From positions 80,154 to 144,153 of the forward strand of contig JABIUV010000007.1 of the NCBI GenBank assembly GCA_018700895.1: a stretch of 64,000 nt of DNA, in the 5' to 3' direction. Both the position numbers and the translations under genes were made by a program. Shown in pieces: positions 133 through 25,217 of the stretch (position 1 is the stretch's first letter; each line of letters begins with the position of its first letter). The notes under the pieces are model-generated. The model was not told the DNA's origin and ran no database searches. It was given only the letters and a program-made list of their open reading frames with translations. The DNA comes from Bacteroidota bacterium. Its GTDB lineage: Bacteria > Bacteroidota > Bacteroidia > NS11-12g > UBA9320.

Positions 133-1671
133 CTAAAGCGGTATGTTACCGTGTTTTTTTTTTGGTATTGTATCCACTTTATTCTCCAACATAGCAAATG
201 CTTTGATAAGCTTGGTACGTGTATGCTCTGGCAGTATCACTTCATCTACAAAGCCACGCTCTGCAGCTCTATACGGATTTGCAAATATCGCGGCATACTC
301 TGCTTCCTTGTCTGCCAATGCAACTTGGAAATCATCTGCTGCTTGTATCTCCCTTCTGAAAATAATCTCTGCGGCTCCTTTGGCTCCCATTACTGCTATC
401 TCGGCACTTGGCCATGCAAAATTCATATCTGCTCCTATATGCTTGCTATTCATCACGTCATAAGCTCCACCATAGGCCTTTCGGGTGATTACCGTAATAC
501 GTGGCACTGTAGCTTCGCTAAATGCATAGAGTAGCTTCGCTCCATTGGTAATAATTGCATTCCATTCTTGATCTGTACCTGGTAGGAAACCAGGCACATC
601 CTCCAATACTAGAAGTGGTATATTGAAGCAATCACAAAAACGAACAAATCGTGCTCCCTTTTGCGAAGATGCAACATCGAGCACACCCGCCAAATACGCT
701 GGCTGATTGGCAATAACTCCTATGCTACGTCCTGCTAACCTGGCAAAACCTACTACAATGTTGGGTGCAAAGTTTTTATGGATTTCGAAAAATGAGTCAG
801 TGTCTATGACACCATCTATAACATCGCGAATATCATAAGGTTGATTGGCACTATCAGGTACGATATCGGTTAATTGCTCTCGCGTTTCGTCTCCAAGTGT
901 ATATTCTACTTTAGGTGCCTGCTCCTCACAGTTCTGAGGCATATAGCTCAATAGCTTTTTGATGTCTTCTATTGCTTCTAGATCATTGGCTGCGGTGAGG
1001 TGAGCTACACCACTTTTTTCGGAGTGCACACTTGCACCGCCGAGGTCTTCTGAGCTTACCTCCTCATTAGTTACTGTTTTTACTACATTAGGACCAGTGA
1101 CAAACATGTAACTGGTATCTTCTACCATTAGAATAAAGTCTGTAATGGCTGGCGAGTATACTGCCCCTCCTGCACAAGGTCCCATGATGGCACTAAGTTG
1201 AGGCACCACACCACTAGCTTGTGTATTACGATAAAAAATATCAGCATAACCACCTAATGACACCACACCTTCCTGTATACGAGCACCTCCACTATCATTT
1301 AGTCCTATTAAGGGTGCTCCATTTTTCATGGCCATCTCCATGATTTTACATATTTTTTCGGCGTGAGTCTCAGACAATGAACCACCAAAAACAGTAAAAT
1401 CTTGAGAGAATACATAAACCAATCTACCCGCTATGGTTCCATATCCGGTAACCACGCCATCGCCTGGGTAGTGCAACGTATCCATCCCAAAATCAGTACT
1501 TCTATGTTTTACCAAGGCTCCAATTTCTTCAAAGGAATTCTTGTCGAGCAGCAAGTCCAAGCGTTCTCGAGCGGTGAGCTTATTCTTCGCGTGTTGAGCG
1601 TCTATTCGCTTTTGTCCGCCACCCAATTTAGCCTCGGCCAGCTTATTCTTTAATATATCTCGGTTATTCAT
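133..1671 (-). CDS. pccB: Acyl-CoA (propionyl-CoA) carboxylase, carboxyltransferase beta subunit
   Basis: [38 protein letters not shown] motifs; ends KKHGNIPL. Confidence 0.93.
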
Positions 1672-2543: not shown

Positions 2544-3275
2544 TTAGTGAGTTATGGTAACTTTTGATGTAGTGACTTTATCCCCATTTGTAACTTTAAG
2601 AATGTATATACCTTTTTCTACGGCATTTACATCAAGTTGGTAACTGTTTGGCGTAATAGCAGAAACTTCGTTACTATTTATTACTGTTTTCCCGTTGAGG
2701 TCTATGAGCTCTATGGTTACTGCATTGCTCTCTGCGAATAGCAAGTCTACATTCAATAGGTTAGTTGCCGGATTAGGATATGCTGCTACATTGTTATTGT
2801 ACTCTAAGTTTGCTACAGAAGCACCATATTGTTTCTCCCAAAGCATTTCTTTTAGAGCAAAGTTATCCGTAGAATCCTCGTCTACAGGAAGTGCCCCTCT
2901 ATCAAAAAGGTAAGCCTGCACTGCGAAGTAAATCTCGGTAGTAGTTCCTATTGTACCATTAATGCCGGCTCCAATTACAGGGCTTTGCACGCTCCCACCA
3001 CTTGGAAGATCTTCTCCCAATATTATGACTGCAGGATTAGATGATACCATCAAATTATTATCCGTTTTGCGAATTAATGCCCAATTGTAATAGATACTAT
3101 CTCCTGCTGAGAGAGCATCACCACTATTGCTTATGGTAAATTGCACGTCTAAAGTAGTCGTAGACTGACCATCTTTAATAAAATCCGGCTTATCAATAGA
3201 AACAAGTGTTAAATCAACTTGAGCGTAAGTTAAACTGGTTAAAACAACGAGTAAGAGAGTAAGTGTTTTTTTCAT
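2544..3275 (-). CDS. Secreted protein with T9SS type A sorting domain
   Basis: Signal peptide; C-terminus YPNPATN...KGIYILKV...KVTITH. Confidence 0.88.
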   Translation of the reverse strand: MKKTLTLLLVVLTSLTYAQVDLTLVSIDKPDFIKDGQSTTTLDVQFTISNSGDALSAGDSIYYNWALIRKTDNNLMVSSNPAVIILGEDLPSGGSVQSPVIGAGINGTIGTTTEIYFAVQAYLFDRGALPVDEDSTDNFALKEMLWEKQYGASVANLEYNNNVAAYPNPATNLLNVDLLFAESNAVTIELIDLNGKTVINSNEVSAITPNSYQLDVNAVEKGIYILKVTNGDKVTTSKVTITH

Positions 3276-7917: not shown

Positions 7918-10731
7918 TTAGAGCCTGAAGCTGATGCCAAAAAGTATTTGACGTGGGGCTTGGTAGCGTGCTGGGTTATTGGGCGGAGTACCGCTTTCTT
8001 CGGGACCTAAGTACCTGTCATCTCGTTGGTTGTTTGGCAAATCATCGCCCGGTTCCCAAGCTCTACCTGTTACCGGATTTATAATCTGAGCGTTTTTGTT
8101 GTTGAACATATTACGTGCCTCAACGCTTAGTGTTATTCCTTTTCTGTTTTTGTTGGCAAAGGTTTTGGTGATTTTAATATCGCCATTTACCCAAGGTGTT
8201 GCTCTCTCTTCTAGGTAATTTGTTAGGTCGGGAGCATACTCAGGTCTGCCTAGCTCGTTTTGACCTTCTAGTATCATAGGCGTATACCTAAATCCACTTT
8301 GGTATGACGAGCTGAAGTACACTTGAAACCCTTTCATCCATTTGCCGAAATACCTGAATGACGTATCGGGAGCGAATACCACACCGAGATTTATATTCCA
8401 GGGTCTATCCCACGCCAAATATTGCTCTGTACTGAGTGGCACTTCACCATTTTGCTCTATCTGTAAACTGCTTTCCCTCGCACTATTACTCTTCCCCTTG
8501 GCTAACTGATATGCTACATTACTAAACGTACGCAAATACTCTGTCACTCGCCATATCAGATTTACCTCTGCACCTTGCACTTTTGCATAATCCTGATTGA
8601 TGTACATGGTTTTACTCACAGGGCGTCCTGTTTGGTCATTTACAATAACTCTACGACTCACGATATAGTCAAACCTATTGTTATTATACGCCGCCATAGT
8701 GAGCCCCATCGTCTTGCCTATCTGTGCTTTATAACCTACTTCGTAAGATACATTCACCTCAGGATTCAAGTCTGGATTGCCAAGGAATGAGAGGAAACTT
8801 CGGTCTTGAAACTCAGGGTCTAGTCCTGCGTACACAAATCGCGGATGCGGGAGTCGCATACTGTGACTGTAGTTAAAATATAATACATTATTAGCCGTCA
8901 CAGGGAATGAGACATTAATCTTAGGCAGTAATCTCGCTTTGTATCGCAACCCAAAGACCTTAGCCGTTCCGTTCAGATAATCTTCTCGTACTTGGTCTAT
9001 AACGGGTGCATTGGGATTATTCACCGCATCATCAGCAAATTTACCGGGTGCCCAATAGTTGAATCGCATTCCCAAACTAGCAATGATTCCTTTGTACGTT
9101 ATTTTATCACTAAAGAATATACCACCATTATTAGGCTTCACACTCCATATATCGTTGCTACTTCCTATACTTATACTTGGCGTACTTGTGCTATCATTTA
9201 TCTGAATAGGAGCTCCCACCCACGGGCGAGTAACATCTATCCATTGATACTCATTGAGTTTTTGTTCCCACCCAAAGTTCATTTGGTGCGTTTTATTCTC
9301 TGGATAATATCTGAAGCTTGCTTTTATAGTATGTTCCTTAGCATAATGGTCGTGCCACAATGAGCTAATACCTCCATTATTTATCAAACCCGGTCCGGGT
9401 AGTACAAACTGGATATTACGTCCCGGATTGAACACTTGTACAGGATCTGTGACAATACTTTGTTCGTCAAAAACTTGGTCTACACTTTCTGTCCTAAATG
9501 GCCTTCCATTGGCATCGGCTCTTAGGTTGGTAAATAGTCGACCTAGAGCTAAGGTTCCTACCAGCTGCTTATTTATAGTACGGCGAATATTGATGGCCGT
9601 CAGGTTAGAATGGTGTGTGTACGTTGTTGCGTTGTCAAGGTTTAAGCTTCTCTCAAACTGGAAACCTGGTGCAAGTATCGCATCGAATCCAACGATTTGT
9701 AATGTTCTCGTATTTTGATTGATACTCAGACTATGCTGATTGGTAACCGATATCTTCGTTTTTTGGTTTAACTCGTGACTTAGCTTGAGTGTATGCGTAA
9801 ACTGATTGGCTTGTCGCGGAGCCCAAAAGCTATCGTTCTGTGTAAATAGTGAACTATGCAATTGATTTGCCGTCGGACCAAAGTAATAGTCTGTAAGGTT
9901 GAGCGTAAGGTTATTAAAGTAGTAAAACTTTCGCTCTTTTATCTTGATTTTACCGCCAAATGAGAGTTCGGCAATGTCCGTATTCCAACCAAAACTTGGG
10001 TTACCGCCAAAGTTATCTCTCTGCCAACTTCCTGCTACTTCAAATTTGTCTGAACCTTCTTTTATGGTAGTACTAATAACACCTGCTGTTCCACCATCGT
10101 GCTCAGCACCTGCACCGCCTGTGATGAGCTCCAGCTCGCCTATAGAGCCACTGGCCACCTGCACACCAAATCCTGTACCCGCTAATGGGTCTTGTGCACT
10201 TATATTATCTACATTGAAAGAGGTTTCGTATACACGAGCACCACGTATCTGTATACCGTCTGCCGACTTAGATACACCCGCTTGTATAGCTACTACTTCC
10301 TGCACATCACGTACATTCATTTCGGCGATGTCTTTTTTGTTTAGCGTAATGGTACTCTTAGCATCATCCAGCTCCACCACCTTCTTTTTACCGATTACCT
10401 TTACCGTCTCAAAGGTGTTGGTACGTGAGGTCATTTTGATATTGAGCACGGTAGGCTTACCTCCTTTAATGTCAATATCATTATACACCTTATCTTGATA
10501 GCCCATAAATGCTACCTTTATGGAGTACGTCCCAGGTTTTATATTTTCTATCTTGTATGAACCATCTATCTCTGATATAGCCGCTCCGTAAGTGCCCACT
10601 ATTCGCACATAAGCTCCTACGAGTTTTTCTCCGTTTTCTTCAGCAGTAAGCACACCTTGCAGTGTTCCCAACTGTGCAAGACTAGAGAGCGATATGCAAA
10701 TAGCTACGATGCTACCAATTAAATGCTTCAT
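7918..10731 (-). CDS. TonB-dependent receptor with N-terminal carboxypeptidase-regulatory-like domain
   Basis: Signal peptide, GTYSIKVAFMGY, plug IRGAR, GNPDLNPE, barrel end PRQILFGISFRL. Confidence 0.9.
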   Translation of the reverse strand: MKHLIGSIVAICISLSSLAQLGTLQGVLTAEENGEKLVGAYVRIVGTYGAAISEIDGSYKIENIKPGTYSIKVAFMGYQDKVYNDIDIKGGKPTVLNIKMTSRTNTFETVKVIGKKKVVELDDAKSTITLNKKDIAEMNVRDVQEVVAIQAGVSKSADGIQIRGARVYETSFNVDNISAQDPLAGTGFGVQVASGSIGELELITGGAGAEHDGGTAGVISTTIKEGSDKFEVAGSWQRDNFGGNPSFGWNTDIAELSFGGKIKIKERKFYYFNNLTLNLTDYYFGPTANQLHSSLFTQNDSFWAPRQANQFTHTLKLSHELNQKTKISVTNQHSLSINQNTRTLQIVGFDAILAPGFQFERSLNLDNATTYTHHSNLTAINIRRTINKQLVGTLALGRLFTNLRADANGRPFRTESVDQVFDEQSIVTDPVQVFNPGRNIQFVLPGPGLINNGGISSLWHDHYAKEHTIKASFRYYPENKTHQMNFGWEQKLNEYQWIDVTRPWVGAPIQINDSTSTPSISIGSSNDIWSVKPNNGGIFFSDKITYKGIIASLGMRFNYWAPGKFADDAVNNPNAPVIDQVREDYLNGTAKVFGLRYKARLLPKINVSFPVTANNVLYFNYSHSMRLPHPRFVYAGLDPEFQDRSFLSFLGNPDLNPEVNVSYEVGYKAQIGKTMGLTMAAYNNNRFDYIVSRRVIVNDQTGRPVSKTMYINQDYAKVQGAEVNLIWRVTEYLRTFSNVAYQLAKGKSNSARESSLQIEQNGEVPLSTEQYLAWDRPWNINLGVVFAPDTSFRYFGKWMKGFQVYFSSSYQSGFRYTPMILEGQNELGRPEYAPDLTNYLEERATPWVNGDIKITKTFANKNRKGITLSVEARNMFNNKNAQIINPVTGRAWEPGDDLPNNQRDDRYLGPEESGTPPNNPARYQAPRQILFGISFRL

Positions 10732-12169
10732 TCAGTATTTTAGAAATTACTTGGTTTTGATTGGGTTGGAGTTTATTCAGTTTGTGTAATTCCACAGTGA
10801 ATAAAACAAGATTTACATCGTTATTCGAATTACGTCTTCTTATAGCAATAGCCCTTGGTCCGGTCCATCCACCGCTAGGCGTGAGCTGTGCGTTGTAAAA
10901 TATCTCTGCATCTATAGCTGGATAAAATGGATCAGCTGCTAGTAAGAAATTTTGTGGTTGTAAGTCAGGGTATGCGGCATCAGTACTTATGGCTATACTA
11001 TCGTTAGTGAAAAATGCCTGCCCTCTGCTTGGACTAAAACTATCTATAGACAAAACACCTCCTATTATAGAGAGGTCTGCTCCCGTAGCAAATGCTGTGG
11101 AAACTAATATTTTTTTGTCATTGTCTATTAAATTTTGAATAACAGGTGCTGCAAAATCAAGCATTTTGCCATCGGCTCCTGTAAGTGGATTACTAAAGTT
11201 AGCCTCGTCTGAGTGAAAGAATACCTTGTCATAGCTATTAGTCATTAAGCTAAATGTAGGTTCCCAAAACTTGGGTTGGTTAAGACCACTATTGCCCGCA
11301 AAGTTTACAAAATCTGCTCCTACGTAATTATCTTTTACCAGTTGCTTATATTGAGCAGTGATGCTGGCGTTATGTCCACCTACCACCAATAAGTCCGCCG
11401 ATTGAGGTTTTACGTATATGCTATCTGCACTATCTATTGCACTCTCAGCATTCGCGATGTCTGTTACCTTGAGTTGTATTATGTTATCTCCATCGTTTAC
11501 AAATCCATCAATAGTGAGGTCTGGGGTAGATGATAATCCATAAAATACATCAGCATTACCTAATCCTATTGCCCTAGTATCACTTGGTCGTATGGATATT
11601 AATTTTTGGTTTAGATCAATCTCGCTCCATGCCCCATCATTTGCTCGTATAAAGCCTTGCTTGAGTGTACTATTACCATCTGGGTCCGAAGCAGAATAGC
11701 GGAACGTGATAACCAGATTGGTCGTATCCGTTGGCAAACTTGCTTCTTCAAAAGCCACTATGGGTGGTGTGTTTTTTAAGGGCACTTTTAAGTATGCCGG
11801 AGTTTGATCCATGGCTCCCTCATTGTCTACAGCTCTCACATAAAAATCCACGTCTGTAGAATCCAAATCGGGGTCTATATTAAATAGGAATATCGTATCT
11901 TGAGTTTGTGTTTTGATCCAATCTCCTTCGTTTATTTTGTACTCAAAGTATTGAACGTAGCCATCTACATCCGTACCAAACCAGGTAAGGTTTACCGTGC
12001 TGTTGAGCCGAGCATCGCCTTGTAAGTTGATAGCCTCTATGCTCATAGCTGTTTCAGGAGCTACATTGGGTAGTTGTTCTCCCTTTTTACACGAAAAAAC
12101 AAATACAAAGAGGCTCAGTGCAAATGCACCAAGCCCTTTGTTTACATATGTTGAATGTTGTCTCTGCAT
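10712..12169 (-). CDS. Surface lipoprotein with Ig/FN3-like repeats
   Basis: Lipobox FVFSC; WFGTDVDG, VRAVDNEG, ASDPDG and KVTDIANA beta-sandwich motifs; overlaps both neighbours. Confidence 0.75.
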   Translation of the reverse strand: MQRQHSTYVNKGLGAFALSLFVFVFSCKKGEQLPNVAPETAMSIEAINLQGDARLNSTVNLTWFGTDVDGYVQYFEYKINEGDWIKTQTQDTIFLFNIDPDLDSTDVDFYVRAVDNEGAMDQTPAYLKVPLKNTPPIVAFEEASLPTDTTNLVITFRYSASDPDGNSTLKQGFIRANDGAWSEIDLNQKLISIRPSDTRAIGLGNADVFYGLSSTPDLTIDGFVNDGDNIIQLKVTDIANAESAIDSADSIYVKPQSADLLVVGGHNASITAQYKQLVKDNYVGADFVNFAGNSGLNQPKFWEPTFSLMTNSYDKVFFHSDEANFSNPLTGADGKMLDFAAPVIQNLIDNDKKILVSTAFATGADLSIIGGVLSIDSFSPSRGQAFFTNDSIAISTDAAYPDLQPQNFLLAADPFYPAIDAEIFYNAQLTPSGGWTGPRAIAIRRRNSNNDVNLVLFTVELHKLNKLQPNQNQVISKILNEAFNW

Positions 12170-14388
12170 TAAAGTTTTACAAACTTAGCAGAAGCACGTT
12201 GTCCGCTATCGTTGGTAAATTCTAATAAGTAAATTCCACTGTTAAGAGTTGCCACATTTACAGTAGCAGTACCGCTTACTTGCTCAGTGAATAGTATTCT
12301 TCCGTCTAATCCTTTTACCGCTACCTGACCAATGGCATTACTAGCAGTTTTGATAGTGATTACATTACTTGTAGGGTTAGGGTAAAAAGACACACCCAAT
12401 GCTTTGAAACTAGGTACAGAAATAGTAGATGTATCAGCAGCATATTTTGCTGAATCTAAAGCTGGAGTGAAACCTTGCAGGTCATCATTGTTTCTTGGCT
12501 TAACAGCGTAGTTGCCAAAACCATAATACATAAGGCCTACTAAAGCATCCATCTCCATATCTTTGGTAGCCTCTACTAGCGGCACTTCTAATATACCATC
12601 TAGTGTTTCGTAAGCAGAGTCAGAAAGCACAGACACCCATAGTGAAGAGTTGTTATTGTTATTCTTTACCCCAGTTTGTACTTTAGTGCTATTGTCATAA
12701 TCGGCAGCAGTATCGTTAGACACAGTCCACTCACCAAATGGGTTAAACTGTGGGTCAGAAATCTTAACCTTTCCTGCGGCATTCACCATCTTCACTAGCA
12801 TACTCTCATATTTCTCGTATCCATTATCTGCTCTTCCTGCTGCATCACTTACGGGTAATTCTATTGGAGTAATCTCCGCAGTATTTCCAGTCTTGGTTAC
12901 AGAGCTAACGATGATTTCTGTAAAACCAAATGACTCCGAAACCTCACCTGTTACTTCTACCTCTTCCGTTCTCCATAGGTCAAGTAAATCTGCACTACCT
13001 CTAAGGTGTATACCACCCCACTCCGTAGCATCTTTATCTTGTATGTATATATCTTCTAAGTCATAAGGCTTAGCACTTGCGGTTACATATCCTTTTACTG
13101 TAACTACTTGGCCTCTGTATGGACTAGCATCTGAACTTGGATCTAGTACGTACTGAAGGTCAACGATACTAAGTCCGTTATCTCTTGCGGTGTAAAAAGC
13201 AGTTGCTCCAGTAGCTGCACTTGCGGTAAACGGCTCAAAGCTCTCGTTTGCGTCATTGTCGGTAGCTTTGATGTAGTACTTTACAATAGTGCCATCAGCT
13301 GCACTAGGAATAGTTGCTTCAAACTCGTCCGTAGAACCTGCTTTAAGTGTCATTGGTACAGCCGTGAAACTTGCATTTGCAGCATTTACGTCTGTTGTAT
13401 AGTATAACGTTTGGCTCGCTACCGTACCGTTAAAGTCAATAATCTTAGCGGCAATAGTAGCAGCATCAGAACTTGTAGGTACTAGAGGCATTCTTGTTAC
13501 CTCAGTAATACTTGGAGGAGTATCACCCAGTTTGTAATGACTTGTGTCAAATGGATTAATCTCATATCCTCTTCCTGTACCACCTGTACATCCATTTTCA
13601 GAATGAACGATAATACCCGTAATAGATTCAAACTGAGATCCTACTATAGGCGTTACAAATTCGCCAGTTGTCTGTGGGCTAGAAGCATTTCTTGGTTCCC
13701 AACTTGGCAATTTTTGAGCTAAAAATCTATCTGACACATTGATTACGTTTCCATTTACATCACTCACATCAAAACTAACACGGGTACCACCACTAAATGA
13801 ACTTACGGCTACTACGGTTAGATTTTCTATCGTAACTAGTGAGCCTTCCCAAGCTTCTCCAGTACCTAAATTATTTACTCTACTTGCATCATTAAGCAAT
13901 CCAAGGTTGATAGTAACGGGAGCTGGTGCTGCGGTAGTACCTATTACAGTTACAGAAGATGCATCTGAAGGGTAAATCTGTGTTTCACCACTAAAACTTC
14001 CTACTTCTCCAATTACTTCTACGATCATTCCAGCTACAAGGTTATCTAATGCAGTTACGGGTTGACTCTGTCCGCCATCTTCGTAAACACCGTGAATCTG
14101 AACAGCTGAGAAGTCTCCCATCATTGCACCACTTGCTGTATCCATAAGATGTACACCTGGTCTGTATCCTCCATTCACAGATCCTGAAGAAACTTCAGTT
14201 AGATTACCATCGTGCATTACGATTCCTACAGTTTTCACTGTTTGACCAGCATAAGCACTTGCATCATCACACGCAGCAAGATCTGTTGGACTTACATACT
14301 GAATGTCTCTAACAGACACACTTGTTTGAGCATTTACACCTAAGATTGTTACTAATCCTAAGGCTAAAACGAGTAATTGTTTTTTCAT
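12169..14388 (-). CDS. T9SS type A-secreted protein with two ExeM/YhcR-like OB-fold modules
   Basis: Internal duplication (DIQY..SAYAGQTVKTVGIV..EAWEGSLV / DLQY..SPYRGQVVTVKGYVTA..EKYESMLV); C-terminus YPNPTS...SGIYLL...KFVKL. Confidence 0.8.
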   Translation of the reverse strand: MKKQLLVLALGLVTILGVNAQTSVSVRDIQYVSPTDLAACDDASAYAGQTVKTVGIVMHDGNLTEVSSGSVNGGYRPGVHLMDTASGAMMGDFSAVQIHGVYEDGGQSQPVTALDNLVAGMIVEVIGEVGSFSGETQIYPSDASSVTVIGTTAAPAPVTINLGLLNDASRVNNLGTGEAWEGSLVTIENLTVVAVSSFSGGTRVSFDVSDVNGNVINVSDRFLAQKLPSWEPRNASSPQTTGEFVTPIVGSQFESITGIIVHSENGCTGGTGRGYEINPFDTSHYKLGDTPPSITEVTRMPLVPTSSDAATIAAKIIDFNGTVASQTLYYTTDVNAANASFTAVPMTLKAGSTDEFEATIPSAADGTIVKYYIKATDNDANESFEPFTASAATGATAFYTARDNGLSIVDLQYVLDPSSDASPYRGQVVTVKGYVTASAKPYDLEDIYIQDKDATEWGGIHLRGSADLLDLWRTEEVEVTGEVSESFGFTEIIVSSVTKTGNTAEITPIELPVSDAAGRADNGYEKYESMLVKMVNAAGKVKISDPQFNPFGEWTVSNDTAADYDNSTKVQTGVKNNNNNSSLWVSVLSDSAYETLDGILEVPLVEATKDMEMDALVGLMYYGFGNYAVKPRNNDDLQGFTPALDSAKYAADTSTISVPSFKALGVSFYPNPTSNVITIKTASNAIGQVAVKGLDGRILFTEQVSGTATVNVATLNSGIYLLEFTNDSGQRASAKFVKL

Positions 14389-14409
14389 TTTTTATTTGTT
14401 TTAAAATTT

Positions 14410-16533
14410 TTATTTAATCACGGCAAACTTGCTTTTATACAACTTGCCTGTATCTAAGTCTTTTACGGTAAATATATATATGCCCCTAGCAATGATTTGT
14501 GTATTCTCGGTCAATAAATCCCAAGCATGCTCTCCTCCACTGTATACATTCTGTGATACGTCCTCCGCCCCAAATGTTTGATTCCAGCGAATGTCGCTTC
14601 CGTCATACTGAGCATTATGAGTTATTTGGTCCAAGAAATCTCCTGCTGCCGAAAAAACCGTGATTTCACAATTGGCTGGCAAATTAGCAAAGTACAATTT
14701 CCTGCTCTGCTCCTGAAAAGAACTTACTCCTTCCCAACTTGCTCCTGCATAATATGGATTAGGATAGGCAAATGGCAAATTGGTAGTGAGATTTTCATTT
14801 ACTGGCTTACCTGCAAATGCTCTATAATTATTGGCCAACGGGCTACTCTCCAAACTCTCTAAGTTGCTCTCTTCATTGCCTCTATCAAATGCGGTAACCG
14901 AAATAGCATACTGCCATCCGTTAAGCACATTCTCTATGGTGTATTTATATTCATAATCTGTATCGTCCCCCTCAAATATAGCTGGATCTGCCAAACGCAC
15001 CGCATCAAAACCAATCTCATAATTAAAGCCATTGTCGGCGATATCATACTCGCCTATCTTTACCAAATCACGTTGCAAGTTAGGCACGTTGGTTACGTCA
15101 AATCCAAGTTTGGTCATATACAAACGGTACCCTTCAAAGTCTTTTATCTGACTAATAGGATCAATGCTTTCCTCTGCATTGTCGTCCCAATATATTTCTA
15201 TCTTATTGTCCGATGTTACCACCTTAGTATTTGGAATCTCCGGTGGAGCAGGAAGGATAAATCGGGTCAACTCACCATCACCATCCAAATCCTCATCCGC
15301 ATCTAGCACTCCATTAAAATTGACATCTTCACCTTTGTAGGCTGTCTGTGCCCAACTAGCATTGGCCAAGAATGTACTTTGTTGCGTGCTGTTATTTTCA
15401 CTATTAGGACTGCCGTCTTCTTTTTTCTTGCCAAAAATGAATGCGTAACTTACCTTGATTTTATCTCCTGGAGTAAAATCTAAGAATGGACCTACCGAAA
15501 CTAAGTCGGAACGATTACCCGCCTGATTGAGCTGCTCCACATAACTACGTGACCCACAACTTGAGTTGGTAGTATTATCCGCATCCCAACACGGATGGTC
15601 GTTAAGACCTCGGGTCATTTTTTGATACCGTGTATTATCATTGGTCGGTTGGAAGTAGATAGGGTCTGAAGTACTATTAAACTGCCACGCATTGTAGTGT
15701 GCATTAAAACGCGTATTTGCATCTGGGTGCTGAAAACCATTTTTGTCCTCTGCTCCTAGAAATTTTTGCCCAACGTAGCTATCCGTAAACCCGACATCGC
15801 CTGAGTTATCATAGCAATACGCCATTTGCAGACTATCAAAGTAGCCGTTACCCCCTTTGTTATAAAAAGCAGCACCTCCGCTACCTGCAGGAGTGATATT
15901 AATATTACGTACTACCGTATTGGCCCAAAGTCCGAAGTATGCGGAATCGATGGCATTAGCTCCAGTGTTTTCTATTTCAAAATCGAGAATAACAAAGAAG
16001 TCGCTAAAAGAATAATTCCAATTGTACGAACGAGCGGTGACCTCTACATTCAGCGGGTCCAAATGCCCCGCAATCTGTGTTTGTGTTCCGGGTACTTGTA
16101 CGTTTCTGTCCGAATATGTCGCTATAAAATCTTGATGCGAAACTGCGGTAGGAGTATAGTAAGGACTATTTCGGAGAGAAGAAGCCTCTCTCAGTGCGGC
16201 TCCTTGTTCTGGATAAAACTCGAAACCCGAAGATCCCGTACTGTATCCCTGCGGTGCGTCTACAGCTGCAGTACTTACTGCCACGGTACTACCATTTATC
16301 AATCCTCCAAACCAAATTCCACTCTCAAAAACGTGCTCCACACCACTACCTGCGGGGTACTCACCACTCGGGTTTCCACTACCGTCGCGGTAGCCACGCA
16401 TGGCATTACCAAAGGTTCCTGAGTTAGAAACATTGAGACGTACGTTAGAAGAGTTGGTGACTTTTTCGTCGAATGACTGTGCCGAAACACCTGCACTCAA
16501 CAGTAATATTGCTATAAAAGCGTGAAATTTCAT
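14410..16533 (-). CDS. Secreted protein with FN3-like domain and variant T9SS-like (PNPY) C-terminal domain
   Basis: Signal peptide; GEYPAGSGVEH N-domain; DxNxNG/DxDGDG Ca-binding-like loops; DFEGYRLY; YPNPYY...WDLLT...RGIYIF...KFAVIK. Confidence 0.75.
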   Translation of the reverse strand: MKFHAFIAILLLSAGVSAQSFDEKVTNSSNVRLNVSNSGTFGNAMRGYRDGSGNPSGEYPAGSGVEHVFESGIWFGGLINGSTVAVSTAAVDAPQGYSTGSSGFEFYPEQGAALREASSLRNSPYYTPTAVSHQDFIATYSDRNVQVPGTQTQIAGHLDPLNVEVTARSYNWNYSFSDFFVILDFEIENTGANAIDSAYFGLWANTVVRNINITPAGSGGAAFYNKGGNGYFDSLQMAYCYDNSGDVGFTDSYVGQKFLGAEDKNGFQHPDANTRFNAHYNAWQFNSTSDPIYFQPTNDNTRYQKMTRGLNDHPCWDADNTTNSSCGSRSYVEQLNQAGNRSDLVSVGPFLDFTPGDKIKVSYAFIFGKKKEDGSPNSENNSTQQSTFLANASWAQTAYKGEDVNFNGVLDADEDLDGDGELTRFILPAPPEIPNTKVVTSDNKIEIYWDDNAEESIDPISQIKDFEGYRLYMTKLGFDVTNVPNLQRDLVKIGEYDIADNGFNYEIGFDAVRLADPAIFEGDDTDYEYKYTIENVLNGWQYAISVTAFDRGNEESNLESLESSPLANNYRAFAGKPVNENLTTNLPFAYPNPYYAGASWEGVSSFQEQSRKLYFANLPANCEITVFSAAGDFLDQITHNAQYDGSDIRWNQTFGAEDVSQNVYSGGEHAWDLLTENTQIIARGIYIFTVKDLDTGKLYKSKFAVIK

Positions 16534-16549
16534 CTACAAATTAGGACTG

Positions 16550-16557
16550 CAAATATA
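16550..16557 (-). promoter_or_regulatory. Bacteroidota -7 promoter element (TATATTTG) for the surface operon
   Basis: Exact match to the TAnnTTTG consensus, 16 nt upstream of the ATG at 16533. Confidence 0.65.
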
Positions 16558-24462: not shown

Positions 24463-24969
24463 TTAATAGGTATGTTTTATAAATTTCGACATCTTAGATA
24501 CATCTCTAGACTGTATCCCCATTATATAAACTCCTGATTCTAAATTGTTTAAATAGATGGTTTGAGGGAAGGTAGGAAAGTCCTGTATATTATTGAGAAG
24601 CATAGAGTACACCACATTGCCATACACATCATATATCAGCATGGTAGCTGGAGATATTTCTTGCGAGGCAAACTGCATACTAAAGTTAATACGGTCAAAA
24701 ACCGGATTGGGATAGTAATAGAAGAAAAAGAAATCACTGCGACATACTCCGTTCTGATCAGGAGAACTGTAATTTACACCTCCTACATTTGTCATTTCGC
24801 AGCCGTTGCGGTAGGTTACATTATTGCATCCACACACAGGATCAAAACTCGGGTCATTGCACTGGTAATATGGGTTAATTCTATTGCTATCTATACAATC
24901 GTTAAATTGGGCTTTTGCCAAAAAAGGCAAGATTATAATACATAAAAGGGAAAATCTGCTCATTTTCAT
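24463..24969 (-). CDS. Small T9SS-secreted protein with a Kazal-like domain
   Basis: Signal peptide; C..DPVCGCNNVTYRNGCE Kazal motif; YPNP...SGVYI...KFIK tail. Confidence 0.8.
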   Translation of the reverse strand: MKMSRFSLLCIIILPFLAKAQFNDCIDSNRINPYYQCNDPSFDPVCGCNNVTYRNGCEMTNVGGVNYSSPDQNGVCRSDFFFFYYYPNPVFDRINFSMQFASQEISPATMLIYDVYGNVVYSMLLNNIQDFPTFPQTIYLNNLESGVYIMGIQSRDVSKMSKFIKHTY

Positions 24970-24973
24970 TTGG

Positions 24974-25217
24974 TCAAAAGTAAACTCTCCATTTACTCCA
25001 AGATGCGTAATTCGGTTCTCCCTTCGCATGTTTTTCTAGCATACCGTCCATCATAATGTTTATACTCATCAGACAGTTCAGAGTCATTTGCCTGTTGCTT
25101 TAACACGTGTTCCATGTAGTTTTTTAGCTTACGGCCTTGTTTTTCAGCTTGTTGTGTTAGGATTGCAATAGTCTCGGCGTCTAGACTTACTTCTTTTCTT
25201 TGTTTATTTTTTAGCAT
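24974..25217 (-). pseudogene. Ribbon-helix-helix antitoxin-like gene, probably frameshifted near 25058
   Basis: N-half RKEVSLDAETIAIL..AEKQGRKLKNYMEHVL; the shifted frame continues IMMDGMLEKHAKGEPNYASWSK...TGA at 24974-24976. Confidence 0.55.

Follow-up and report, generated by a model that had tools for sequence, protein, structure and literature searches.

Two characterised systems provide the closest precedents for the locus described here. As summarised in the reports on them, the DNA-utilisation locus ddbABCDEF of Bacteroides thetaiotaomicron is required for DNA depletion (PNAS 2025, PMC12478041; bioRxiv 10.1101/2025.03.18.642099), and a protein of the DUF5689 family is the partner subunit of its transporter DdbCD (PMC12478041). 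In Riemerella anatipestifer, RA0C_RS04915/04920 encode a barrel with a carboxypeptidase-regulatory-like domain and an adjoining DUF5689 (plus DUF5017) surface protein, and the summarised account gives both RA0C_RS04915 and RA0C_RS04920 as essential for DNA uptake in natural transformation (PMC8459023). We describe a related set of four genes, A, B, C and D, in a 64-kb window of a small marine Bacteroidia genome (the window is the whole stretch of DNA analysed, and its positions are used throughout; other contigs of the same genome are labelled C6, C15, C28 and C46). These genes are the core of a conserved seven-gene module, U-A-B-C-D-E-F, and we propose, giving the idea about an even chance, that the module picks up nucleic acid from outside the cell by means of surface proteins and takes in the fragments through a TonB-dependent channel. 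Because related characterised systems exist in ddbABCDEF and RA0C_RS04915/04920, the architecture is a variant and not unprecedented, and the remark in a preliminary description of this DNA that no characterised system with this architecture was known is not supported. What is new is the seven-gene module, which is undescribed, TonB-dependent nucleic-acid utilisation loci of Bacteroidota being already known; a literature search found no paper on this module, the supplementary tables of the DUF5689 papers, which possibly list homologues, lying outside its scope.

The four genes are co-oriented minus-strand open reading frames (ORFs) that together occupy 7918-16533 in the ORF list of the window. 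Reading of the junction sequences gives a 21-nt gap between A and B, a TAATG stop/start overlap between B and C, and a 20-nt overlap between C and D, so that the four-gene operon of the preliminary description stands with all of its junctions. A scan of one genome per species matched at least 600 stretches and confirmed at least 590 A loci, the best 80 of which were kept with 10-kb flanks. B follows A in 75 of these 80, two of the five exceptions lying at a contig edge, and the order A-B-C-D is present in 46 of the 58 loci that have at least 8.7 kb after A. The remaining 12 comprise two in which all four genes are present but interrupted by insertions or a split of B (L051 and L066), one with A and D-E (L087), two with A-B-C (L041 and L042), five with A-B only (L044, L045, L047, L068 and L071), and two with A alone (L067 and L080). 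Carriers of the genes belong to the Flavobacteriales (Salibacteraceae, Schleiferiaceae, Cryomorphaceae and Owenweeksia), Cytophagales, Sphingobacteriales and Chitinophagales, and many are Ignavibacteriota; the gene order is conserved across Bacteroidota and Ignavibacteriota.

Clustering of all flanking ORFs of the 80 loci revealed three further conserved genes, U, E and F, and most relatives carry the longer module. E and F follow D in 38 of the 48 loci with room after D, four more keep E or F alone or in an altered form, and the six in which both are missing after D (L012-L016 and L020) come from this genus and those nearest to it. In 22 loci U is placed directly upstream of A, and in two it comes after F. 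F is a lipoprotein with an NHL repeat, and the E protein of this genome is a member of the PorV/PorQ family (NF033709, 150.7 bits, cut-off 90); its scores with the equivalog models for PorQ and PorV fall below their cut-offs. The linkage to PorV/PorQ-like genes or nucleases for which the preliminary description had suggested looking is thus present in relatives, where A-B-C-D is flanked by a PorV/PorQ paralogue and by a nuclease-like enzyme secreted by the T9SS (type IX secretion system). Two other kinds of recurrent neighbour, cluster c55 (ClpB/ClpC-type) and clusters c7-c12 (lipoate and 2-oxoacid dehydrogenase genes), were set aside as housekeeping genes and not parts of the module.

In the genome studied here the module is split, with A-B-C-D at C28:88071-96686, E and F about 85 kb away at C28:1459-3692, and U on another contig at C46:23945-25231. 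Four members of the same genus (G017, G007, G015 and G020) likewise hold A, E and U at scattered positions, and D was found in G017 and G007, the two of the four that were searched for it. A fifth, G011, which has an estimated completeness of 100%, yielded no A, D, E or U with the same queries, a clean natural loss of the whole dispersed set. Since four genus members keep these genes and G011 lacks all of them, the dispersed parts still travel together.

One indication of the ligand comes from B. Its structure model (pLDDT 89.8) contains the duplicated oligonucleotide/oligosaccharide-binding (OB) folds that had been likened to ExeM, and these resemble the anticodon-binding domains of aminoacyl-tRNA synthetases, MCM N-domains, RPA and Teb1 (Z 9.5-11.2), while a Foldseek search with the model places the p204 HINab-dsDNA complex 8th and 10th (E about 1e-6). 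To define the DUF5689 relationship, DUF5689 genes were collected from 151 Bacteroidia genomes, 20 surrounding regions were fetched, and a profile of 13 DdbD-like proteins was built. OB module 1 of B (residues 50-220) aligns with this profile with an hhalign probability of 96.1 (E 3.5e-9) and OB module 2 (residues 404-537) with a probability of 90.1 (E 1.6e-6), against control values of 0.2 for A and 26.7 for C, where the alignment was confined to the signal peptide. On these profile alignments the two OB modules are homologous to DUF5689, and the guess of DNA or RNA as substrate gains support for that reason. The Pfam DUF5689 model also weakly matches the B orthologues of G111 and G105. The C-terminal domain (CTD) of B exceeds both curated cut-offs for T9SS sorting domains (PF18962, 37.5 bits against 27; TIGR04183, 46.3 bits against 23) and matches solved CTDs in fold (Z 10.8-12.1), which bears out the assignment of B as a T9SS type A protein; a sequence search of the PDB with B gave matches through this domain only.

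B and U may be considered together in relation to the ExeM/NucH nucleases. B matches NF033681 at model positions 1-241 only, in two stretches (E 9e-18, 64.4 bits against a cut-off of 300), and is without the catalytic domain of that family. U shows the catalytic signature of the endonuclease/exonuclease/phosphatase (EEP) superfamily, a conserved N, a conserved E, a GDxN motif and an SDH motif being among the conserved columns of its alignment, and its profile matches nocturnin and CCR4-type EEP structures. Of the 25 members of the U family, 19 match PF03372, 18 a T9SS CTD, 19 the family of MnuA membrane nucleases and seven ExeM/NucH (best E 1.2e-7), and U is, judged by these motifs and families, a T9SS-secreted EEP nuclease-like enzyme. 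Because both match NF033681, B and U look like the binding and catalytic parts of an ExeM/NucH-type nuclease made as two T9SS proteins, in contrast to ExeM/NucH itself, where the OB region and the EEP domain are in one protein. We also note a 1098-residue T9SS cargo protein encoded at C6:349-3645 (minus strand; L098), with lamin-tail, CBM48 and CTD regions, which gave the only, weak, match when this genome was searched with the Pfam DUF5689 model (E 0.003). It matches the ExeM N-terminus (E 2e-19) with no catalytic domain recognised in it, and may be a second surface nucleic-acid binder.

A has no match to any Pfam or NCBIfam family at E <= 0.1, its CTD included, and its structure model has a mean pLDDT of 86.8. 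Searching the PDB by sequence with A, with C or with D returned nothing useful, and an Atlas search with residues 19-430 of A no usable match. The C-terminal 125 residues of A align with the CTD of B (hhalign probability 94.5, E 8e-8; 0.5 for a control domain), so that the 'PNPY tail' noted earlier is CTD-like, although it is atypical in carrying two conserved insertions relative to the CTD of B and in matching no curated CTD model. Relatives are plentiful, with 1764 at E <= 0.001 among 8000 scored candidates, of which those with a named source are all annotated as hypothetical proteins of Bacteroidia or of Flavobacteriales metagenome-assembled genomes, and 1952 matching proteins at the same threshold in a 50%-representative library. 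Fold comparison of the model identifies residues 19-426 as a galactose-mutarotase-like beta-supersandwich, similar to the N-domains of glycoside hydrolases (GH) of families GH15, GH94 and GH116 and related enzymes (Z 16-20, root-mean-square deviation 3.0-4.9 A over 234-290 residues) and, over a wider range of Z 12-20, to those of GH15, GH94, GH116 and GH65 enzymes and lyases.

This fold raises the alternative that the module serves glycan or glycoconjugate capture, with A binding carbohydrate, the OB modules of B acting as carbohydrate-binding modules (CBMs) and D importing oligosaccharides without a SusD. The fold matches of B's Ig domain include N-domains of amylases and CBMs (Z 10-13), and the nearest named clusters to C in the Atlas are DUF4960 (score 0.86-0.88, at lead level only), both of which would suit a sugar ligand. 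However, clustering of the flanking ORFs revealed no conserved glycoside hydrolase, lyase or regulator of sugar use in any of the 80 neighbourhoods, the extra enzymes that are conserved are of EEP and phospholipase D (PLD) nuclease types, B is homologous to DUF5689, and the supersandwich is also known from proteins that have no sugar function, such as YidC in its periplasmic domain (Z 13, ranks 24-25). We therefore regard a glycan ligand as unlikely, even though it fares better than the other alternatives, and favor nucleic acid.

The CTD-like domain of A and the barrel E give a high-scoring complex model (0.88, against 0.00 for the best control), at a mark reached by 58 of 80 solved complexes and by two of 110 mismatched pairs. 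Agreement between runs extends to 80% or more of the contacts, with a partner pLDDT of 66 or higher. PorV-CTD complexes have already been solved, and for that reason the pass may reflect this likeness only; as a model score it would express no preference of E over the housekeeping PorV. PorU and PorV proper were assigned, by gene sizes, order and a weak match, to C15:46287-51293. The PorQ-PorZ and PorV-PorU pairs belong to the T9SS attachment complex, and the arrangement predicted here is similar to them in that a PorV/PorQ-family barrel would hold a retained CTD-like domain, that of A, and differs in that E is a dedicated paralogue encoded with an uptake module.

C and D correspond to the lipoprotein and TonB receptor anticipated for the locus. 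C has a signal peptide and a lipobox whose Cys27 is invariant in 53 homologues, followed by two FN3/Ig-like domains and a C-terminal domain of about 235 residues without a family. The fn3 family matches weakly in 18 of the 53 members of the C family, a profile search of the PDB gives weak FN3 matches only, the Atlas holds unnamed Bacteroidota clusters besides the DUF4960 clusters just mentioned, and neither C nor its 52 homologues match a SusD family at E <= 0.1. D combines CarboxypepD_reg, Plug and TonB barrel domains in a barrel of 22-strand type, with the Plug (PF07715, 24.6 bits against 23.9) and the barrel (PF00593, 72.8 bits against 27) above the Pfam cut-offs, and the match to the SusC/RagA model TIGR04056 is confined to residues 24-147 and scores 37.6 bits where the cut-off is 368, in keeping with a receptor that is not of the SusC type. 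Together with tight operon packing, surface binding proteins and a lipoprotein beside a TonB-dependent barrel are also features of SusC/SusD polysaccharide utilization loci (PULs), from which this locus differs in having no SusD, SusC/RagA signature, glycoside hydrolases or sensor/regulator; that the locus holds no SusD, glycoside hydrolase or regulator was seen both in the window genes, the flanking ones included, and in the family searches.

We also asked how D relates to the barrels that accompany DUF5689. The D-family hidden Markov model (HMM) matches four of 14 DUF5689-adjacent, DdbC-like barrels at E 5e-12 to 1.6e-7, these being neighbours of DUF5689 genes and not the named DdbC or the Riemerella protein themselves, whereas it matches generic TonB-dependent transporter (TBDT) paralogues of the same genome at 1e-49 to 1.6e-29. 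By these profile scores D is not a DdbC-type barrel, and no relation to that type goes beyond general TBDT homology. The closest of the paralogues in this genome (E 1e-49) is a 1254-residue TBDT-like gene on C15, which adjoins the PorV-like (358 residues) and PorU-sized (1298 residues) genes within C15:46287-55103 (minus strand).

The comparison with ddb shows likenesses and differences. Each is a PUL-like surface locus that centres on a TonB-dependent barrel whose N-terminus is of CarboxypepD_reg type. Each also has an OB partner of DUF5689 type, in B by profile alignment, and secreted nucleases, for the module the nuclease-like U, which in this genome lies on another contig. They differ in that barrel D is of another TBDT lineage, in that the DUF5689-like unit is duplicated and is T9SS cargo instead of a lipoprotein beside the barrel, and in that the barrel-adjacent gene encodes the unrelated lipoprotein C; A, E and F are without a named counterpart in the ddb paper as summarised. 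In two canonical TBDT+DUF5689 loci (L118 and L119) there is a homologue of U that is 36-39% identical to it (E 4e-66 and 1e-69), together with a T9SS protein whose homology is to B's second half (26-27%, E 6e-17 and 7e-14). A further gene, encoding DUF5689, fn3/purple-acid-phosphatase-N and PLD-like nuclease domains, stands directly after F in eight Ignavibacteriota loci, and the same architecture, with a T9SS CTD in addition, follows DUF5689-adjacent barrels in Bacteroidia (e.g. L102:10156-12372). Of the 151 Bacteroidia genomes, 33 have A and 29 have a strong DdbD-type DUF5689 (E <= 1e-30), and no genome has both. Any statistic on this is inflated by the relatedness of the genomes; even so, within a single family (f30) G111 has the module, and G068, G147 and G180 have DdbD. 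The module appears to replace, and not to accompany, the only characterised type of Bacteroidota DNA transporter, and our best reading, held at about even odds, is a nucleic-acid machine that resembles Ddb by analogy and not by orthology.

The Riemerella pair shares with the module a barrel with a carboxypeptidase-regulatory-like domain and a DUF5689-type surface protein, and differs in being a two-gene unit for which neither T9SS tails nor a PorV paralogue nor a further lipoprotein are described; the barrel D is of another type as well, as judged by the profile test on DUF5689-adjacent barrels and not on the Riemerella protein itself. Its role suggests that the same machine with the same ligand could take up DNA for natural transformation, as RA0C_RS04915/04920 do, and not for nutrition. 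A DUF5689 protein and a barrel are reported to be essential for transformation in R. anatipestifer (PMC8459023, as summarised there), DprA is present in this genome, and ComEC occurs in 19 of 25 other genomes of the genus. ComEC (PF03772) was not found in this assembly, which has an estimated completeness of 100% in 59 contigs, so that a gap is possible, and the absence could be either an assembly gap or a recent loss; ComEC accordingly failed as a separator of the two purposes. The secreted EEP nuclease and the PLD nuclease of Ignavibacteriota suit degradation better than the uptake of intact DNA, and with D not a barrel of the Riemerella type, we consider this transformation reading unlikely. 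That the module scavenges proteins or peptides, or builds a surface structure such as an adhesin or an S-layer-like coat to which the TonB-type barrel is mainly an anchor, is very improbable, for although T9SS parts abound in the module, with two CTD proteins plus the PorV/PorQ paralogue, and an M4 peptidase with a FlgD_ig tail accompanies it in L050, L051 and L072, that peptidase is in only three of the 80 loci, the Plug and full barrel of D are those expected of an active transporter, and linkage to a nuclease is far more frequent, U being present in 24 loci. The peptidases themselves are thermolysin-type proteins of 1014-1048 residues encoded between or after the module genes, the insertion lying after B in the three loci (13601-16744 in L051).

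Returning to the capture of nucleic acid, which after import may serve nutrition or transformation, we propose the following sequence of events. B would be exported by type IX secretion and stay on the surface, where its two DUF5689-like double-OB modules would bind DNA or RNA, and U, the T9SS-secreted EEP enzyme encoded elsewhere in this genome, would cut the polymer. E, as a dedicated PorV/PorQ paralogue, would keep A at the outer membrane, where A could serve as a scaffold or a second binding site. The lipoprotein C would partner the barrel D, which would import oligonucleotides with TonB energy, and a terminator-like hairpin at the start of C (see below) would make A and B more abundant than C and D. 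We infer the ligand, the effect of the hairpin and all of the protein contacts, including that between C and D.

Several observations weigh against this scheme, in addition to the zero overlap being uncorrected for genome relatedness. The large domain of A has a fold found almost only beside carbohydrate-active catalytic domains, and the nucleic-acid substrate named in the preliminary description, while it gains from the DUF5689 homology of B, is a putative one. Family searches of the window genes found no nuclease gene in the operon, and the Pfam DUF5689 model has no match to the B of this genome at E <= 0.1. C gave no informative family in family, PDB or Atlas searches, and since D is unrelated to DdbC beyond general TBDT homology, nucleic-acid transport by D cannot be deduced from DdbC. 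The presence of M4 peptidases, and the fact that DNA binding by the DUF5689 proteins is itself deduced from a structural model in the reports as summarised (PMC12478041, PMC8459023), point the same way. It is because of the carbohydrate-enzyme-type fold of A, the want of a nuclease in the window, the different barrel and the peptidases in three loci that we hold our confidence near an even balance.

A conserved RNA feature may add to the regulation of the module. Within the signal-peptide codons of C lies a hairpin of 11 pairs, six of them G-C, followed by a U-rich tract. Every one of 23 distinct relatives examined has a hairpin in this position, the stem sequence often being unrelated; in more distant relatives a hairpin is in the B-C spacer instead. 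Across 17 aligned sequences of the genus, 96.3% of hairpin cells are paired, against 29-37% in slid controls, and six of the 11 pairs are changed on both sides, which one of 500 shuffles reaches. These alignments show a conserved, covarying terminator-like hairpin within the opening codons of C. Four marine metatranscriptomic libraries have contigs on the operon, which cross the A/B junction in X16, B/C in X15, X16 and X17, and C/D in X16 and X18, and X15 has no contig on either flanking gene; such contigs attest presence in RNA libraries and are not proof of a single transcript or of an expression ranking. A seemingly higher contig depth over A-B than over C-D was left unused, contig depth being unable to rank genes.

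Dissolved DNA is a large pool of phosphorus and nitrogen in seawater, and we know of no DNA uptake route for the abundant small-genome marine Bacteroidia. The module is widespread, given the number of confirmed loci and its presence in marine RNA libraries, and its private PorV/PorQ paralogue would link a nutrient importer directly to type IX secretion. A fuller version of the proposal, which we offer as a tentative possibility, is that aquatic Bacteroidota and Ignavibacteriota lacking the Ddb-type transporter possess a DNA/RNA apparatus built on the T9SS, in which a double-DUF5689 'fishing' protein and a scaffold tethered by the private paralogue would feed a secreted EEP nuclease as well as an unrelated TonB barrel that has a lipoprotein lid of its own, and an intrinsic terminator in signal-peptide codons would set the ratio of capture proteins to channel. 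If this fuller version is true, the module would be a main route by which small-genome marine Bacteroidia obtain phosphorus and nitrogen from dissolved DNA, and a second, independent invention of TonB-dependent nucleic-acid import. The coupling of secretion to import and the hairpin within coding sequence are testable because a cultured carrier with a complete locus exists (Acidiluteibacter ferrifornacis, L025).

Table 1. Features of the locus and of its relatives (window positions for genes and DNA elements, residue numbers for protein domains)
Feature	Position	Strand or placement	Description
Gene A	14410-16533	-	707 aa, secreted
Gene B	12169-14388	-	739 aa, T9SS cargo with duplicated OB modules
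Gene C	10712-12169	-	485 aa, lipoprotein
Gene D	7918-10731	-	937 aa, non-SusC TonB-dependent transporter
TATATTTG, candidate Bacteroidota -7 promoter element	16550-16557	-	17 nt upstream of the A ATG
Terminator-like hairpin (12136-12111) and U-rich tract (12110-12094)	12094-12136	-	codons ~12-25 of C
A domains	signal peptide; supersandwich ~19-426; FN3-like; atypical T9SS-CTD-like ~582-707	-	predicted from model and profile match
B domains	OB 20-152; OB-like 155-288; Ig/FN3 289-404; OB 405-505 and further domain to 645; CTD 664-739	-	predicted from model
DUF5689-fn3-PLD loci	L048, L054, L057, L060, L061, L064, L066, L070	after F	flanking ORF clusters

The upstream neighbour of the operon is a TsaD-fold gene, and the 55-nt spacer between it and A contains the octamer TATATTTG, a candidate for the promoter of its own with which the operon had been credited. 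TAnnTTTG is the Bacteroidota -7 consensus. The octamer is kept at -22/-24 before A in the four closest relatives (L012-L015), and TAnnTTTG variants occur in L016, L017 and L020; TANNTTTG is not enriched across the window, with 79 matches against 65 +/- 8 in shuffles. A second motif of the TAnnTTTG type, TAAGTTTG, lies at 12180-12187 (minus strand), 11-18 nt before the C start, where the final codons of B are. An internal promoter that serves C-D, upstream of the hairpin, is a possible role for it, although its conservation may be a mere by-product of conserved C-terminal CTD residues of B. Downstream, beyond a 155-nt spacer, lies a gene for a family 2 glycosyltransferase. Two other genes of the window encode small secreted proteins with C-termini that resemble T9SS sorting domains by eye (NP...GIY/GVY...K...), one of 243 residues at 2544-3275 (minus strand) and one of 188 residues at 24463-25029 (minus strand), whose N-terminal part is cysteine-rich.

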